From: a virus
DNA length: 64,000 nucleotides
Reading direction: 5' to 3' (one strand)
Virus record (IMG/VR): IMGVR_UViG_3300028581_000013
Position 1 is the first letter of the stretch. Every line of letters starts with the position of its first letter. The position numbers and the translations under genes were made by a program. Positions 35,971 to 43,742 of this stretch are shown here, piece by piece. Below the pieces are notes generated by a model. It saw only the letters and a program-made list of their open reading frames with translations, was not told the DNA's origin and did not search any database.

Positions 35971-37935
35971 TTATACTGGTCGTTTGTTTTGTCGTTGAAC
36001 TCGTAACAAAGTTGGATCATCAATTCTAGGTGAAACTGAACCATCAATAGCAACACCACCACCGCCACCAGAATTATTTCCAATCGATTGTGAATTATCG
36101 ATAATAGTTGTATTCATTGCAGGAGCGGCCGCCATTTTAATTTCAGCATTCTTACTCATAGTTGATTCTAACTGTGAATCGGTTCTACCACCAGAAGATA
36201 CAGGTGTTACCTTTGGTGCTGGTGGTGTGGCTGCAGGTGATGCTGATGATGGTGTGGCTGCAGGCATTGGTTGATTTGTATTTGAACCTTTGACTGTTGG
36301 TGTTTCTGTCGTTGCTTCCACAGGTTTATTGTTTTCTTCAGGTGTAGTGGTAACAACAGGTTCAACTTCTCCACTAGAATTAGAAATGTGTTCAAATAAC
36401 TTTTCACTAATTGCTTTACCTGCCTTTTTACCGCCAACATAACCTAATGCGGCGCCCGTTGCACCGCCTAAGAAGGCACCAATTGGTCCACCAACTGAAC
36501 CAATAGTTGCACCGATAGTAGCACCCATTGATGTACCAGCACCAGCGGCAATTATTTGAGCAGCACTAGAGACCATAACTTCTCTTAGTTGTTTATCATC
36601 TATCTTACCTTCTTCTCTATCTGCTATAGCCTGTTTCATTGTTTCCATCATTTCAAATGCACCAGCAATACCACCAATAAAAGGCAATTTAGTAAAATAT
36701 TTTAGAACACCTTTAGCACCTTTTAATACTTTAGACATCTTTGTTGCTTTAGGTTTTTCTTCAACCTTTTCTACTTTCGTAGCTTTCTTTTCTTCTTCGT
36801 ATTTCTCTTTACCTTTTTTGGTTGCCTTCTCAGCAGTCTTATTGGGTTTTTCTCCTGTTTTCTTTTCACCTTCTGCTGGTTTTTCTCCAGGTTTTTGTTC
36901 TGCTGGCTTTGGTTCAGCTGGCTTAGGTTCTGCTGGTTTAGGCTCAGCAGTTCCTGGTTTTGGTTCTGACGGAATAGTTGGAGTTTTAATGCCTCTTAAT
37001 CTATCTAAAAGGCTTTTTAATCCTAATACTCCTCCAATTTCACCAATTAAGGTCATTAAAGGTCCAATTACACTCCACAATCCACTCCATATGCTGGATA
37101 TAACTCCAAGCAACATATTTTTTGCAGTTTCAATTAACCCTTTGATGAAATCGAATAGGCCACCACTTTCTTCTTTTTTTGCTTCAGTTTTTACTACAGC
37201 AAAAGATCCTAAAGATTTTATCGCATTAATCAATTCTTTGTTACGTTTTTCTTTTTCTTTTTCACGTATTTTCTTAAAACTTTTTTCTATTTGATATCTT
37301 TTTAAAGAATTAATTTGTTCGGCTTTAATTAAATTATACATTCTTGCTAATATAGTAGCAATACCGTCACCTTTTTTCATAGATTGTGTATTGCCTTCTG
37401 AAATGGCAGAATACAAACCTACATCGGATTTGTTTAATTTTTCATTGATATATGCTGGCTTTGGTTTGGTTTCTTTTGCTTTCTTGTCGCCAGCAAAATA
37501 ACTAATATCTTCTTTACTTCTTCCAGTCATTCGACCTAATAAAGCAGAGCCTAATTTTCCAGTTAATATCTTTGCAATGTTTAACGGATCAAATTTTTCT
37601 TTTAGACCGGTTGAACGTGCTTGCATTTTTTCTGAAATGCCTGATTTGATGGAAGTTAATACACCTTTATCTTCTACCAATTTTTCTGTAATCAAATCTT
37701 TTAATGATTTCTTTCTAATCTGTGATGCCTGTTTATACGACATTTTCTTTTCTGTTGTGTCCGTAATAGAAGCTTCATCTTGTTTTTTTGGTTTACCTAA
37801 TTTACCCATTTCTTCTTTTGTAGCCGCACGAATATAACTGCCGGTTTCAGCTAAAAGAAACCAATGGCCTTTCTTATTAAAGGCGTTAGGGTTCCATGAG
37901 AAAGTATCTTGACCTAATGTTTTTATTATAACCAT
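35971..37935 (-). CDS. Tape-measure/hub-like tail protein (gp29-like), paralog B
   Basis: Helical, Gly-rich hydrophobic segments, EPKPA repeats; position next to gp51/gp26. Confidence 0.6.
   Translation of the reverse strand: MVIIKTLGQDTFSWNPNAFNKKGHWFLLAETGSYIRAATKEEMGKLGKPKKQDEASITDTTEKKMSYKQASQIRKKSLKDLITEKLVEDKGVLTSIKSGISEKMQARSTGLKEKFDPLNIAKILTGKLGSALLGRMTGRSKEDISYFAGDKKAKETKPKPAYINEKLNKSDVGLYSAISEGNTQSMKKGDGIATILARMYNLIKAEQINSLKRYQIEKSFKKIREKEKEKRNKELINAIKSLGSFAVVKTEAKKEESGGLFDFIKGLIETAKNMLLGVISSIWSGLWSVIGPLMTLIGEIGGVLGLKSLLDRLRGIKTPTIPSEPKPGTAEPKPAEPKPAEPKPAEQKPGEKPAEGEKKTGEKPNKTAEKATKKGKEKYEEEKKATKVEKVEEKPKATKMSKVLKGAKGVLKYFTKLPFIGGIAGAFEMMETMKQAIADREEGKIDDKQLREVMVSSAAQIIAAGAGTSMGATIGATIGSVGGPIGAFLGGATGAALGYVGGKKAGKAISEKLFEHISNSSGEVEPVVTTTPEENNKPVEATTETPTVKGSNTNQPMPAATPSSASPAATPPAPKVTPVSSGGRTDSQLESTMSKNAEIKMAAAPAMNTTIIDNSQSIGNNSGGGGGVAIDGSVSPRIDDPTLLRVQRQNKRPV
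36860..36970 (-). repeat. 15-bp coding tandem repeat (EPKPA)n
   Basis: EPKPGTAEPKPAEPKPAEPKPAEQKPGEKPA. Confidence 0.8.
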
Positions 37936-37938
37936 TTT

Positions 37939-39642
37939 TTATATTGTTGTTTCTAAAACTGGATAATCGTCAATCTGTGCTGTACTTATAATTTGTCTGG
38001 ATTGACCACCACCAGCATTAATGATTGTTTTGGTATTGTTTACTGCTATATTTGTTACAGGTACTTGTTCTTTTAATTCTTGATTTTGTTTCGACATAGC
38101 ATATACAGCCTCACCAGAAGGTGAACTGGTGAAGGCTTCAACTTTGGCCATTTGTTCAGCACCAAACCCTCTTGTTAAATCTACACTGGCACCAACGATT
38201 GCTTTAGTTATTTCGTTATTCGCTTCTGATTGGCTCTTAAATGAATTTACTCTACTACCTAATTTATTTTTAACAAAAGCTGCAACAATTTTTGGTGCCA
38301 ATACTGAATCATTTACTAAGTCTGGATTGGAAACTAAATCGGCACCAATTTGTTTACCAATTCTGTTATAGTTATCTTTTCCTGTCAATTGAATCAGACC
38401 ACGGCCACGATATTTAAATCCATCACCTGGTTCTTTATTACCTAACTCTTGACCTTTGGCAGTCTGATAACCGTAAACTGTTTCAAAAAATTTAGAATCA
38501 TCTTTTTTAATTTCATTTAGTTGGTCATCTGTAAGACCTGCAACTCTACTGCCAAATATTTTACGGATTCTATCGTTTGAAGTATTGGCATAACCAGTTT
38601 CATATTTTGCAGTAAATCCTGATTCTTTACCAACATTACCTAAAATAGCTTTTTGTGCATACTCATTTGTTATACCAACTTCAGCCAAAGCCGATCCTAT
38701 ACCAGCGACCACTGCGGCAGTACCACCAATGGCCGCCGCACCTCCTACAGAAGGTGTTGGAATTTTAGTTGCTTTGGCAGCTTCAACCACACCAGCGACT
38801 GGCTTATCTATTTCTTTTGTTATTTTTGGTACAGTCTTTGTTGGTTGTATAATTTTTTCTGCTTTACTAACAACCGTGGCCACACCTGGAATATCTTTGG
38901 CTTTAGTAACGGCTTTACTAACAACAGTAGTTACTACTGGTGCGGCTGCAGAGGTGGTTGCAACAGTAGGTGATGTAACTGTGGATGCAGGTGTTTCTGG
39001 TTTCTTTGATTCTTCAGGTTTTTTTGTAGGCGGCTCTTCAATTTTTAAATCTTTTTTGACTTTTTCAATATCCGTTTTTGCTGGTTTTTTATCTTTTAAT
39101 TTTTTAATTTCATTAATTAAATTTTCATGCCGTTTGGCATCTTCTGCTTGAACTTCTTCTTCAAAATTATAGTCTAACTCACGATTTAAATTTTCTTTTT
39201 CATAAAAGGTTTTCATGACATTAACCAAACGAGCGGCTACAGTAGCCACATTATCACCTTTTTGTAATGAACCTCTTTGACCTTCTCTAATTTTACTATA
39301 AAAGGCAGTTTCTACATTGCCAACTTTAGTTTCTTGTGGTTGTGTAAAAGAATAAGGTTTCTCACCTTTTTTTCTATTTTTATTGAAGAAGTATTGCATA
39401 TCTTCAGGTTTTCTACCTGTTATCTTACCTAAGAAAGCCATACCAAGATTACCCGTTAATATCTTTGCAATGTTTAACGGATCAAATTTTTCTTTTAAAC
39501 CTGTAGTTTTTGCTTTGAATGATTCAGATACGCCTCCACCAATGGATTGACCAAATCCTTGGCCAGCGACTAATCTATCGGTAATAGTACCTAAGACTCC
39601 TCGTTTTCTGGTTGTCGCTGCTTGTTCGTATTTGCTTATCAT
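37939..39642 (-). CDS. Tail protein with GH19 lysozyme/chitinase domain, paralog A
   Basis: KESG, LGN..PGDGFKYRGRGLIQLTGKDNY, DLV.NPDL. Confidence 0.85.
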   Translation of the reverse strand: MISKYEQAATTRKRGVLGTITDRLVAGQGFGQSIGGGVSESFKAKTTGLKEKFDPLNIAKILTGNLGMAFLGKITGRKPEDMQYFFNKNRKKGEKPYSFTQPQETKVGNVETAFYSKIREGQRGSLQKGDNVATVAARLVNVMKTFYEKENLNRELDYNFEEEVQAEDAKRHENLINEIKKLKDKKPAKTDIEKVKKDLKIEEPPTKKPEESKKPETPASTVTSPTVATTSAAAPVVTTVVSKAVTKAKDIPGVATVVSKAEKIIQPTKTVPKITKEIDKPVAGVVEAAKATKIPTPSVGGAAAIGGTAAVVAGIGSALAEVGITNEYAQKAILGNVGKESGFTAKYETGYANTSNDRIRKIFGSRVAGLTDDQLNEIKKDDSKFFETVYGYQTAKGQELGNKEPGDGFKYRGRGLIQLTGKDNYNRIGKQIGADLVSNPDLVNDSVLAPKIVAAFVKNKLGSRVNSFKSQSEANNEITKAIVGASVDLTRGFGAEQMAKVEAFTSSPSGEAVYAMSKQNQELKEQVPVTNIAVNNTKTIINAGGGQSRQIISTAQIDDYPVLETTI

Positions 39643-39833
39643 TTACCTTGTCTTTGCTTTATCTTTTCGTTTTCTTCTTCAATGAATTGTATAAGCATAT
39701 TAACGTAAATATCACGTTCCCAAGGTATCATATTTTCAAGTTCAGTCAAACTATACTTGTGATGTTGCATCAAGGAAAAGTTTGTTTTATAATAATTTCT
39801 TAAATTGTCATGACGAAATGTTAACCGAAAAAA
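39639..39833 (-). CDS. gp51: Baseplate hub assembly catalyst gp51 (probably reached by -1 frameshift from gp26)
   Basis: NYYKTNFSLMQHHKYSLTELENMIPWERDIYV. Confidence 0.85.
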   Translation of the reverse strand, partial: FFRLTFRHDNLRNYYKTNFSLMQHHKYSLTELENMIPWERDIYVNMLIQFIEEENEKIKQRQGK

Positions 39834-40546
39834 TTGTCTAACCCTTCCACCTCTATCGTGTGGTTGTATCCACACTTACCACAAGTAGTATTAATAACCT
39901 TATTCATTGTTGGTAGGTTATTAAAAAAGTTTTCAATCTTTGCAAATTGATCTTGATTTAAAGACTCAACAAATTCTATCAATTCTGCTGGATCAGTTTC
40001 TTTTGAATAATAATATTGTTCACCATCAAAAATATATTCTATACTCTCAACAATCATTTGAAATGCCATGTCTGTGGCACTACTAAACTTTGTTGCTCTT
40101 TCTAACATAGAAAATTCTGGATACTTTAACTTAATGGCAATTATGTCGGTTAATTGAACAATATCTTTAGCATCTTCTTTAAATTCAACTTTGATGTCAA
40201 GAAGATTAACAGATGTGTCCATCAAATTACCACAAGGTTTGTCATTAACTTCATTTTCACAACGATATTTGGTTTCAATTACTTCACCAACCGAACGTGC
40301 TCTCAAATTAATAAAGTAAAATTCAACATCAATAATAGGTAATGAATCAATGTCAACATTGGGTGTCAAAGTACAATTGTGTAAAACTTGCCTGATGTTT
40401 TTTTCAATTGTTTCTTTATCATCTGACTCCATTGCCATCATTAAGTTTCTTTGTTCTTTTACAAGAAACGGCCTAAATCGAATATGTTTCTTCGATAAAG
40501 GTAAATCTATTTCATATACTGGTGCATCAATTTTTGGTAAAGCCAT
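39821..40546 (-). CDS. gp26: Baseplate hub assembly protein gp26
   Basis: MALPKI..P.Y, RPFLVKE, LRARSVGE, LKYP, EGL..FF. Confidence 0.92.
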   Translation of the reverse strand: MALPKIDAPVYEIDLPLSKKHIRFRPFLVKEQRNLMMAMESDDKETIEKNIRQVLHNCTLTPNVDIDSLPIIDVEFYFINLRARSVGEVIETKYRCENEVNDKPCGNLMDTSVNLLDIKVEFKEDAKDIVQLTDIIAIKLKYPEFSMLERATKFSSATDMAFQMIVESIEYIFDGEQYYYSKETDPAELIEFVESLNQDQFAKIENFFNNLPTMNKVINTTCGKCGYNHTIEVEGLDNFFG

Positions 40547-40572: not shown

Positions 40573-41457
40573 TTAATAACCATCCCATTCAGAATATTGA
40601 AATGGTCCAGTTTCTTCATAATAATCTTGGCCAGATTCATATTCTAAAGGATATGGTGCTTCTTCCGATACATAATCGTCCGTTCCACCAAACCATGATG
40701 ATCCTGAATCATCATAACCATCATAACCGCTTCGACCGGTGTTGTCATTTCCAATTGTTGTAAATGGATTACTTAAATCTGCTTCATCACCAAATGTGCC
40801 AAGTGAACCAATGCCACCCAAAGCAGCAGTGATTCTTGATATAACACTTAACAATAAAGAAGTGCCTAGTGCTTGTACTGAATTATTCATCCAGTAAGAA
40901 TAGGCAAATACTACTGTTAATTTGTGGTGACCATCAGCAGACCAATCTAAGTCTAATTGATTGACAGAAATTGGATAAGCATCAATCAATGTTACAGAAT
41001 AACTTTTATCATTTTCTACATCATATTGATTTATTGTAATATTTGAAACATAATCTGTTTTATATGTAAAATTAAAAGAATACGTTGGATTTATAAATTC
41101 TTGCCATGTATCAAAGAATATTCTTTCATTCATATCATCACTAACAATAAAAGTTAATGTTGTATCATTGTATGTTGGCTGATACGGAAACTTTTCAACA
41201 GGATTTGATCCTATTTTTCTGTCTGCTGTAGCAAATGTTCTGCTAGGCAGTTCTGCATTCTCACAACGCATCTTTAATATTCTTGACATACCTCTAAAAG
41301 GTATCAATGTAATGGGTACAGGTATTTCTACATCAAATTTATTAGGTCTTGCCACATCGGTGACAAAGCTCGATTTAAAGTCACTGATGCTACCGCTGGT
41401 ACCTGGTTCGTTACCAAAAAGGCCGATATTACCAAATAGGTTATCGAAAATGGCCAT
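40573..41457 (-). CDS. gp54: Tail tube initiator gp54-like
   Basis: ARPNKF.V, CE.AELP, FFD.WQ, AYP......LDW; acidic C-terminal extension. Confidence 0.75.
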   Translation of the reverse strand: MAIFDNLFGNIGLFGNEPGTSGSISDFKSSFVTDVARPNKFDVEIPVPITLIPFRGMSRILKMRCENAELPSRTFATADRKIGSNPVEKFPYQPTYNDTTLTFIVSDDMNERIFFDTWQEFINPTYSFNFTYKTDYVSNITINQYDVENDKSYSVTLIDAYPISVNQLDLDWSADGHHKLTVVFAYSYWMNNSVQALGTSLLLSVISRITAALGGIGSLGTFGDEADLSNPFTTIGNDNTGRSGYDGYDDSGSSWFGGTDDYVSEEAPYPLEYESGQDYYEETGPFQYSEWDGY

Positions 41458-42063: not shown

Positions 42064-42501
42064 TTAGTTGATTCCCAGATGATCTTCAGTCAGTAATTTG
42101 AACTCCCAACCACGATCCAAACAAAACTCGGTAGCCGCCTTCCATTTAGCTTGATTGACCCCCCAAGTGGTCACCTCGTTGATATACTGTTTCGTGACTC
42201 TTTTTCTATGTTCTGGTCGTTGAGTTTGTTTTTTAGGTTTAACTTCTAGTATCATAGTTTTTAAGAGACCATCTCTCGTTTTGATTTTAACCAAAAAATC
42301 AGGAAAGTATCGGTGCCTTTTTCCGTCTACGGGAGATATATAAGGAATAATCAATTCTTCAGAAGCCCAAGAAACAATGTTATCGTTTCTGTCGAGCCAA
42401 GACATTACCTTACATTCCCATGAGGACCGGTAAATGATGTTATTTGCATCCCCAACATACTTTTGAGGGTTTTTAGGTGTAAATCGTCCAGAATATGCCA
42501 T
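42064..42501 (-). CDS. gp4: Head completion nuclease gp4
   Basis: MAYSGRF.PKNP.KY.GD, YRSSWE, HRYFPDF, EVKP, NQAKW.AA. Confidence 0.93.
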   Translation of the reverse strand: MAYSGRFTPKNPQKYVGDANNIIYRSSWECKVMSWLDRNDNIVSWASEELIIPYISPVDGKRHRYFPDFLVKIKTRDGLLKTMILEVKPKKQTQRPEHRKRVTKQYINEVTTWGVNQAKWKAATEFCLDRGWEFKLLTEDHLGIN

Positions 42502-42506
42502 AAATA
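42500..42506 (+). promoter_or_regulatory. T4-type late promoter for the baseplate operon
   Basis: ATAAATA overlapping the gp4 start codon, upstream of gp48. Confidence 0.7.
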
Positions 42507-42533
42507 CTATGTATAACTTTTTTAGAGGAATCA

Positions 42534-43742
42534 ATGGCTATCTTATCCATTCCAACATCCGTAGCTGGTGTATCGATACCATCAGGTCTATTTAACCCAA
42601 ATAGTCCACTAGCTTTATTATACGGCGGTCTTGGAGTTAAAACATACAAATATCCTTCAGATTTAGCAACCAGTCCATCAAAATCCCACTACGTTCAATT
42701 TTCGATATCAGAAATTATACCTGCAAGTTATAGTGGTGGTGGCCAAGTACCACTTAATGAAAATTTAATTGAGGGTGATTCTGTTGGTTTACCTGGATTT
42801 GGTGGTATAGCTCAAGAAGCTGGTTCTATGTCTGGTGATGAAAGCTCCTGGACAGAATCGAGCACAGGATTGTTTGAGTTATCTGAAGATTCTGGTTCGG
42901 GTGGATTTTTAGGTGATTTTGGTGCCACAATATCGAAAGGTTTAAAAATATCACCAACAAGAACTCAGCCAAAGGCTTTTGTTTCATTGTATATGCCAGA
43001 TACACTCAATGCACAATACAATGCTTCGTATGATGAATTAAAACTCACAGATTTGGGTTCGGGAATAAACACACTCAGAACAATTGACCAGTTGGCTGGG
43101 CCAGCAAAGTCCATTGTAGAATCGTATAAATCTGGTGGCGGAGGTCTTGGTGGTGTTGGATCAGCACTAAAACAAGCCGGTAATATAGCAGGCACAGATC
43201 CAGCCGCCATATCTTTAATTACACGGGGTGGCGCTGCTTTAGCTAATAAAGCAGGCTTTGGTGTAAATGGAGGAGCATTAGAAGATGTGTTGTTAAAAGG
43301 TCAAGGTTATGCCATTAATCCACAGTTACAAATGATTTATCGTGGTATTGGTTTAAGAAATTTTCAGTTATCATTTGTGTTCACACCAAACTCTCAAGGT
43401 GAAGCAAATGAAGTAAACTATATTATAAATTTATTCAAATATCATTTTGCACCAACATTAATATCTGCTAAAGAAGTTTCTTCCGACTCAATGTATTTGG
43501 TACCACCTTCAATCTTTAATGTTGAATTCATGATTGATGGTAAAGAAAATCCATTTTTACCAAAATATGGTAGTTGTGTTTTATCCGACATCGATGTTAA
43601 TTTTGCACCAAATGGTTGGGCTTCGTATGATGATGGTGCACCAGTTCAATCGACACTCACAATGACATTCAAAGAAACAGAGATATTAGATAAAGGCAAA
43701 ATACAAAAAGGTTATTATGGTGTTGAAGGAGGTTTAAGATAA
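42534..43742 (+). CDS. gp48: Baseplate tail-tube cap gp48
   Basis: YP.DL, LYMP, NPQ...Y.G..LR.F...F.F.P, L.F.E.EI. Confidence 0.85.
   Translation: MAILSIPTSVAGVSIPSGLFNPNSPLALLYGGLGVKTYKYPSDLATSPSKSHYVQFSISEIIPASYSGGGQVPLNENLIEGDSVGLPGFGGIAQEAGSMSGDESSWTESSTGLFELSEDSGSGGFLGDFGATISKGLKISPTRTQPKAFVSLYMPDTLNAQYNASYDELKLTDLGSGINTLRTIDQLAGPAKSIVESYKSGGGGLGGVGSALKQAGNIAGTDPAAISLITRGGAALANKAGFGVNGGALEDVLLKGQGYAINPQLQMIYRGIGLRNFQLSFVFTPNSQGEANEVNYIINLFKYHFAPTLISAKEVSSDSMYLVPPSIFNVEFMIDGKENPFLPKYGSCVLSDIDVNFAPNGWASYDDGAPVQSTLTMTFKETEILDKGKIQKGYYGVEGGLR

Follow-up and report, generated by a model that had tools for sequence, protein, structure and literature searches.

Do gp26 and the short reading frame that is called gp51 in other phages constitute one gene or two? 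The question is raised by a stretch of 64,000 nucleotides from the IMG/VR virus record IMGVR_UViG_3300028581_000013, which is referred to here, over its full length, as the window. A gp26-like gene on the minus strand ends on a run of T's, and a second open reading frame (ORF) overlaps its 3' end in the -1 frame. Judging from the sequence of the locus and of its relatives, it is very probable that gp26 and the 'gp51' ORF form one translational unit, in which a -1 ribosomal frameshift produces two tail assembly chaperones. In phage lambda the G and GT proteins share an N-terminus owing to a -1 shift shortly before the first ORF ends, and the pair lies between the tube and tape measure genes. 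The long form is the minor one, and both take part in assembly but are not found in the virion. Long-tailed phages as a rule make two chaperones by frameshifting, and T4-like phages have long stood out as the exception.

The 3' end of gp26 on the minus strand reads GAG GTG GAA GGG TTA GAC AAT TTT TTC GGT TAA. The six T's occupy 39833-39828, the C is at 39827 and the gp26 TAA is at 39823-39821, which places the 0-frame stop one codon past the heptamer, and the -1 ORF is open from the heptamer on. A first-pass annotation, made from the letters of the window, had given this gene end and placed a T TTT TTC heptamer at 39833-39827, and its coordinates are exact. It had also identified gp51 with the -1 frame of gp26, and that frame, read from 39833 as FFRLTFRHDNLRNYY..., does stay open from the heptamer to a TGA at 39641-39639. 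The elements concerned are the following.

39821..40546, minus strand: gp26-like gene, short tail assembly chaperone (TAC-N), 241 residues; PF12322, phrog_150
39827..39833, minus strand: slippery heptamer T TTT TTC, 0-frame codons (AA)T TTT TTC, identified from sequence
39639..39827, minus strand: -1-frame extension, labelled 'gp51' elsewhere, 62 residues after the slip; phrog_634
40546..39827 joined to 39827..39639, minus strand: predicted fusion coding sequence (CDS), 302 residues

Both parts belong to known families. The gp26 ORF is matched by PF12322 (T4_baseplate, E 1.1e-57) over profile positions 3-218 of 219, and by phrog_150 ('baseplate hub', E 3.6e-63). The extension matches phrog_634 ('baseplate hub assembly catalyst', E 4.8e-32) in an alignment that begins approximately at the heptamer. 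It also matches phrog_150 at positions 229-276 of 282, from which it follows that some members of the gp26 family carry the extension in frame. As a mere word TTTTTTC is not enriched in the window (40 occurrences against 38.6 expected), and the case therefore rests on position, phase and conservation.

In the mechanism proposed here most ribosomes would read gp26 through to its TAA and make the 241-residue protein. A minority would slip one base back on T TTT TTC, the two tRNA-Phe on the P-site UUU and the A-site UUC re-pairing with UUU UUU (tandem slippage on U UUU UUC). Once slipped, these ribosomes would translate the -1 frame, whose 62-residue helical extension gives a predicted long product of 302 residues with the junction ...EGLDNFF/RLTFR.... 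By analogy with lambda G/GT and with the E and E+E' proteins of phage P2, the shared N-terminal chaperone domain may hold the tape-measure or hub protein that is encoded downstream, and the extension may recruit another tail component during initiation of the hub and tube. Neither form would be expected to stay in the virion. The ribosomal nature of the slip, its efficiency and the binding partners of both forms are what we infer.

Is the junction conserved? Relatives were gathered into three sets that together comprise 179 loci (80 + 87 + 12), the first two by means of single-protein queries. The first set holds 80 IMG/VR loci whose gp26 is 70-99% identical to that of the window, and the second, of 87 loci, covers two clades farther away that were found by way of cluster representatives 36-42% identical to the window gp26. 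The third set consists of 12 GenBank records: S-PM2, Syn33, S-WAM1, S-PRM1, ACG-2014i, S-CAM8 (two records), P-RSM3, Stenotrophomonas phage DLP6, Caulobacter phage Cr30, Vibrio phage D480 and Aeromonas phage Ah1. The window has a guanine plus cytosine content of 35.5%, and its nearest relatives are metagenomic contigs. All 179 loci have a gp26 that ends NNT TTT TTY, followed by 0-1 codons and a stop, and all have a homolog of the extension in the -1 frame. The check that the first-pass annotation had put forward, an alignment of gp26 3' ends, thus comes out in its favour: the heptamer is kept where synonymous changes would be allowed, and in no locus does gp51 lie in any other frame than -1. 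When the loci are pooled there are 97 distinct junctions, with TTTTTTC in 92 and TTTTTTT in 5. Some clades have eight T's (AGT TTT TTT TAA).

The same loci bear on whether the junction is an artefact, that is, a homopolymer error of sequencing or assembly, or a recently broken gp51-like gene. Homopolymer runs are error-prone, and a fused gene like gp51 of T4 that had lost one nucleotide would look alike. This explanation can hardly be entertained, since the same geometry recurs in 179 independent loci from isolates and metagenomes whose sequences come from many laboratories, with the in-frame fused version in none of them. In addition, 137 of the 150 best representatives of clusters made at 50% identity end at the same point, with F-F or F-L and 0-3 further residues, and 123 of them have 0 or 1. 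The window gp26 is matched by 4,010 such clusters in all, and for that reason the gp26/gp51 site is probably among the most widespread recoding sites in environmental viruses. Fourteen of the 150 best representatives (P0125, P0132, P0153, P0154 and ten others) end F-L-x and not F-F-x. Behind such endings there could be a T TTT TTA or T TTT TTG heptamer. For one F-L-x representative the IMG/VR relatives are all of the FF type.

The pattern of variation around the junction shows where each frame is read. The residue encoded by the codon 5' of the T-run varies (N, S, D, G or A), and its last base is always T. A T stands at the 0-frame third positions 0 and +3 in each of 62 distinct junctions, and a C at position +6 in 61 of them, while 0-frame third positions close by but outside the heptamer vary freely. 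In these 62 junctions the variable columns fall on 0-frame third positions 5' of the heptamer and on -1-frame third positions 3' of it. Base +8 takes all four letters; gp26 accordingly ends on G, A, D or V, and the -1-frame Arg stays the same. The switch in periodicity and the Arg kept at +8 mean that purifying selection on the -1 reading starts at the heptamer. A search at the DNA level points to the same place, the best-conserved stretch shared with cyanophages starting at the junction. The extension is better conserved than the chaperone body, with a mean column identity of 67% (computed over 39 diverse sequences) versus 32%.

Could gp51 be translated separately? In such an arrangement gp51 would initiate from its own ribosome binding site or by termination-reinitiation, and the T-run would be kept for the C-terminal FF of gp26. 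GenBank has gp51 as a CDS of its own in S-PM2, Syn33, DLP6, Cr30 and D480, and FF also ends the gp26 of T4, where a shift is impossible. The -1 ORF of the window has no ATG before codon +21, and its sole upstream start is a GTG at codon -14 (39875). This GTG is not conserved in relatives with a 93-94% identical gp26, in which the -1 frame is closed 10 codons 5' of the heptamer and no start occurs before codon +20. The first ATG, GTG or TTG of the -1 ORF was recorded for the 97 distinct junctions. It lies at least 20 codons after the heptamer in 28 of them, 10-19 codons after it in 14, 0-9 codons after it in 44 and 5' of it in 11. S-CAM8 has its first start codon only at +35. The late start codons are preceded by a conserved block, FFR..H..L.NYY.TNF, that begins at the heptamer. 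The view of the first-pass annotation that the conserved part of gp51 precedes its first Met and has no convincing start is well supported by these 28 junctions. Several loci have a -1-frame stop right 5' of the T-run, and there any shift is therefore confined to three codons.

The junctions with a start within 0-9 codons are what two separate proteins would predict, and some of these starts overlap the gp26 stop as TAATG or TGATG. Separate proteins are nevertheless very unlikely. In the 28 late-start junctions, with the window counted as one of them, translation would begin past the conserved block, and selection on the -1 frame is seen from the heptamer on, with the Arg kept while the overlapping gp26 residue varies. 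The third-position T of the variable codon preceding the run is invariant, and phages of the T4 type encode FF as TTC TTT. Finally, gp51 of T4 is a natural fusion of both parts. Independent initiation cannot account for the start-less phages, the selection pattern or the architecture of T4 gp51.

Genes 26 and 51 of T4 are separate and divergently transcribed, and their products are detectable paralogs (BLASTP E 2e-6). T4 gp51 (249 residues) is composed of PF12322 at residues 1-201 (E 3.9e-52) and a C-terminal piece matching phrog_634, whereas T4 gp26 is PF12322 only. When T4 gp51 is compared with the window, the gp26 frame accounts for residues 99-185 and the -1 frame for residues 196-244 (39842-39693), and the two segments meet at the heptamer. 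The conceptual fusions of eight phages align colinearly with T4 gp51 in MAFFT, and T4 gp26 stops at the same FF motif. The best reading of these sequences is that full-length T4 gp51 corresponds to the long form and T4 gp26 to the short one. The number of gene copies agrees with the type of junction. Among complete genomes there is one PF12322 gene in S-PM2, DLP6, Cr30 and Vibrio phage D480 and there are two in T4. A tblastn search of the 64-kb window finds a single PF12322-like region, and the two-gene arrangement of T4 is not seen within the window. Phages with two genes have a non-slippery motif, GAG/GAA TTC TTT in T4, HX01 and VR5, TTT GTT in Konradin and TTC CTT in RB49, and in AS-gz, another two-gene phage, the motif is absent.

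The first-pass annotation had described gp26/gp51 as the T4-type version of the G/GT system. This holds for the fusion architecture of T4 gp51 and for the frameshift in relatives of T4, but T4 itself, with its separate paralogs and FF codons TTC TTT, is without a frameshift. Frameshifting is a property of T4 relatives of the cyanophage-like, Vibrio, Aeromonas Aeh1-like and allied kinds, and not of T4 and its close kin. Two observations from comparative genomics can be explained in this way. Sullivan et al. (2010, PMC3037559) reported that the gp51 of cyanophages reaches only about 20% of the T4 gp51 length, and they gave it as 'missing' from Aeh1. On the present reading, what is called gp51 in cyanophages is the -1 extension. 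The gp26 of the Aeh1-like Aeromonas phage Ah1 (MG250483) ends GAT TTT TTC GAC TGA, and a 166-nt 'intergenic' gap after it holds an unannotated -1 ORF of the gp51-extension family. The report of a missing gp51 in Aeh1-type phages is thus accounted for by an extension that was left unannotated, as seen in Ah1.

Do the products resemble tail assembly chaperones? An AlphaFold2 model of gp26, built on 121 sequences, has a mean pLDDT (predicted local distance difference test) of 95.6. The model was compared by exhaustive structural alignment with 48,161 PDB representatives. The top three chains, clear of the rest, are the uncharacterised Bacillus protein 3fgx (Z 7.6), 3klu, which is YqbN of a B. subtilis prophage (Z 7.2), and 2ob9, entitled 'bacteriophage HK97 tail assembly chaperone' (Z 7.0). 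All three align with model residues 1-95, and the next match has a Z of 4.5. YqbN is a prophage tail chaperone of the XkdN type. Foldseek found no match to the gp26 model in the PDB at E <= 0.001, and a profile search of the PDB sequences with gp26 gave nothing meaningful. In the model the part shared by both products has a fold like that of tail assembly chaperones. The extension is predicted to be a small helical domain (best-model pLDDT 84). A Foldseek search of BFVD found the gp26 fold in proteins of, among others, Ralstonia phage phiRSL1, Pseudomonas phage PaBG, Bacillus phages SP-15 and BCD7, Tenacibaculum phages pT24 and PTm1 and Leptospira phage LE4, some of them 380-670 residues long. 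These are myoviruses and jumbo phages far from T4, and the chaperone family therefore extends well beyond the T4-like phages.

Several points weigh against a ribosomal frameshift. At 44 of the 97 junctions a start lies within 0-9 codons past the heptamer, often in a TAATG or TGATG overlap with the gp26 stop, and phages with such a nearby start could also make free gp51 by translational coupling. The Z values of 7.0-7.6 are moderate; they are below 8 and within the range that is common for best hits. No direct experimental demonstration of the fusion product was found in the literature. Nor was a conserved RNA structure found downstream of the heptamer: the fold of positions 39826-39745 of the window has a z of -0.04, and an alignment fold of 16 diverse junctions predicts 0 pairs. 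Any stimulator would thus be the adjacent 0-frame stop or an upstream Shine-Dalgarno-like stretch. Both are possible candidates only. The stretch in the window is the following.

39842..39853, minus strand: purine-rich Shine-Dalgarno-like stretch GAGGTGGAAGGG, candidate stimulator, 9-20 nt 5' of the heptamer

At positions -20 to -7 the 97 distinct junctions have GGAGG in 60, GAGG or GGAG in 10 and AAGG or AGGA in 26. The conservation of this stretch is uninformative, because it also encodes a conserved Glu-Gly and is under protein constraint.

A further point on that side is that a slip of RNA polymerase would yield a protein identical to the -1 ribosomal product. In transcriptional slippage the polymerase would add one U on the T6 run (T7 or T8 in some relatives) and the same fusion would be translated from the altered transcript. 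The site is a pure homopolymer that is kept as a run, the T at position 0 extends it to six, some clades reach eight T's, and an RNA stimulator was not found, all of which fits such a mechanism. Productive slippage by bacterial RNA polymerase, however, usually needs runs of about 7-9 or more, and 92 of the 97 distinct junctions have just six T's followed by C. The run also always keeps the X XXY YYZ phase, and a 0-frame stop follows within 0-1 codons, which is the typical layout of a ribosomal site, although this phase is partly forced by the conserved FF residues. Taken by itself, transcriptional slippage is quite unlikely. Four RNA-library runs have small shares (0.04-0.06) and provide contigs only. 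Contigs of relatives 80-95% identical bridge the junction without inserted or deleted letters; contigs cannot show minority transcripts or expression.

How does the frameshift site relate to its neighbours? The gene order is a tube-like gene, the chaperone and then tape-measure-like genes.

40573..41457, minus strand: tail-tube-like gene of the gp19/gp54 type, 294 residues; phrog_45
39639..39642, minus strand: ATGA overlap of the extension stop with the start codon of the downstream gene, identified from sequence
37939..39642, minus strand: tail protein of 567 residues with a GH19-type lysozyme domain, tape-measure-like, candidate chaperone client; PF00182, phrog_181

The upstream gene matches phrog_45 ('tail tube', E 1.7e-37) and has a weak match to the Pfam gp19 family; the equivalent gene of Vibrio phage D480 is labelled 'tail tube' and that of Aeromonas phage Ah1 'gp54 tube initiator'. 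The downstream 567-residue protein matches PF00182 (E 8.8e-9) and phrog_181. The first-pass annotation had the pair directly upstream of tape-measure-like genes. This is plausible in view of the ATGA that joins the extension to the next gene and of Caulobacter phage Cr30, in which the equivalent gene is annotated as tail tape measure protein; the tape-measure family itself was not matched, neither the 567-residue nor the 654-residue downstream protein of the window having a hit to such a family in Pfam or PHROG. These two proteins, the GH19-type one and a Gly-rich, hydrophobic one at 35971-37935, share a conserved N-terminal module (...GLKEKFDPLNIAK...), and in relatives either of the two large types of tail protein can directly follow the chaperone. 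A complex prediction for gp26 with the N-terminal 200 residues of the 567-residue protein had a score of 0.00, which is evidence neither way. Farther upstream, at 42064-42534 on the minus strand, a gp2-like DNA end protector gene and the baseplate genes are separated by the gene for a 156-residue protein, probably a free-standing or homing-type endonuclease, which starts with a TnsA-like endonuclease N-terminal domain (PF08722, E 5.8e-25).

The ATGA overlap between the extension stop and the start of the next gene is common to most relatives. It is conceivable, if rather unlikely, that frameshifted ribosomes couple into translation of the tape measure through the ATGA, or that the shift is partly or wholly RNA polymerase slippage on T6-T8; both ideas are drawn from the anatomy of the locus. 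If the coupling were true, the switch would not just fix the proportion of short to long chaperone; the rare long chaperone and its client would be made in cis, from the same mRNA and in fixed proportion.

The idea of a gp26/gp51 frameshift appears to have been published already, by Vladimirov, Gautam and Davidson (Virology 566:9-15, 2022), to judge from the portions of the literature that refer to this work. PMC12846349 cites Vladimirov et al. 2022 where it says that the TAC-N genes of T4-like phages have poly-T slippery sequences. PMC10274946 refers to the same paper for some T4-like phages that do not frameshift but have a short gene and, beside it, a longer fusion gene. The latter source thus reads Vladimirov et al. 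as describing the two-gene solution of T4, and not slippage. As far as it is described in these sources, the published system concerns the same PF12322 family, with gp26 short, gp51 long and a poly-T site where the ORFs are adjacent, and with separate short and long genes in T4; it is independently confirmed in the present analysis. No substantive difference between it and the window is established. The codon-periodicity switch, the start census, the Aeh1-type case and the ATGA coupling are details of the present analysis that the paper may already contain. Searches of the literature on gp26/gp51 frameshifting or on cyanophage baseplate-hub frameshifting found nothing else relevant. The present finding thus mainly confirms, on a new phage and with some quantitative detail, an idea apparently published in 2022.

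The practical value of the finding is in annotation. A joined or ribosomal-slippage CDS is absent from all 12 GenBank records that were inspected, and in six of them (S-WAM1, S-PRM1, ACG-2014i, both S-CAM8 records and P-RSM3) the extension is unannotated and appears as a gap of about 190 nt after gp26. If a ribosomal frameshift is the right reading, gp26 and gp51 are a chaperone pair that is frameshifted in most marine and freshwater T4 relatives and, in T4, duplicated to give two genes. The pair would then tie the assembly of the T4 hub to the general tape-measure chaperone mechanism.

How does this system compare with those that are known? The chaperones of known structure, HK97 2ob9 and YqbN 3klu, superpose with the N-terminal 90 or so residues of gp26 over 85-86 residues, which is most of each target. 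The identity is only 4-12%, however, and gp26 has about 150 more residues, including a four-Cys region. Among recoding sites, the one that separates the gamma and tau products of E. coli dnaX likewise involves a -1 shift on a homopolymer-type heptamer with a Shine-Dalgarno-like stimulator about 10 nt upstream, and a GGAGG-like sequence is found at a similar distance here. The dnaX site differs in its strong downstream hairpin, none having been found at gp26/gp51, and the Shine-Dalgarno-like stretch is confounded here by the Glu-Gly codons.

The E and E+E' tail chaperones of phage P2, reportedly the subject of work by Christie et al. in 2002, come close in several respects. P2 has a contractile tail, and its -1 shift takes place on a heptamer made of a T-run (T TTT TTG), just ahead of the point where the first ORF stops and upstream of the tape measure. 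The comparison is by description; the P2 proteins belong to another family, and their products were shown experimentally whereas those of gp26/gp51 are predicted. The lambda gpG/gpGT pair is said to have been treated by Levin et al. in 1993 and by Xu, Hendrix and Duda in 2004. No sequence similarity between lambda G/GT and gp26/gp51 was detected. The lambda heptamer is G GGA AAG and not T TTT TTC, and the lambda extension has about 140 residues compared with 62 here. The chaperone of the window is larger (241 residues), with a four-Cys region that is a putative zinc ribbon and extra domains, and it serves a contractile tail with a T4-type hub. What the two systems would have in common is two products with the same N-terminus, the second of which arises when ribosomes shift by -1 close to where the first ORF ends.

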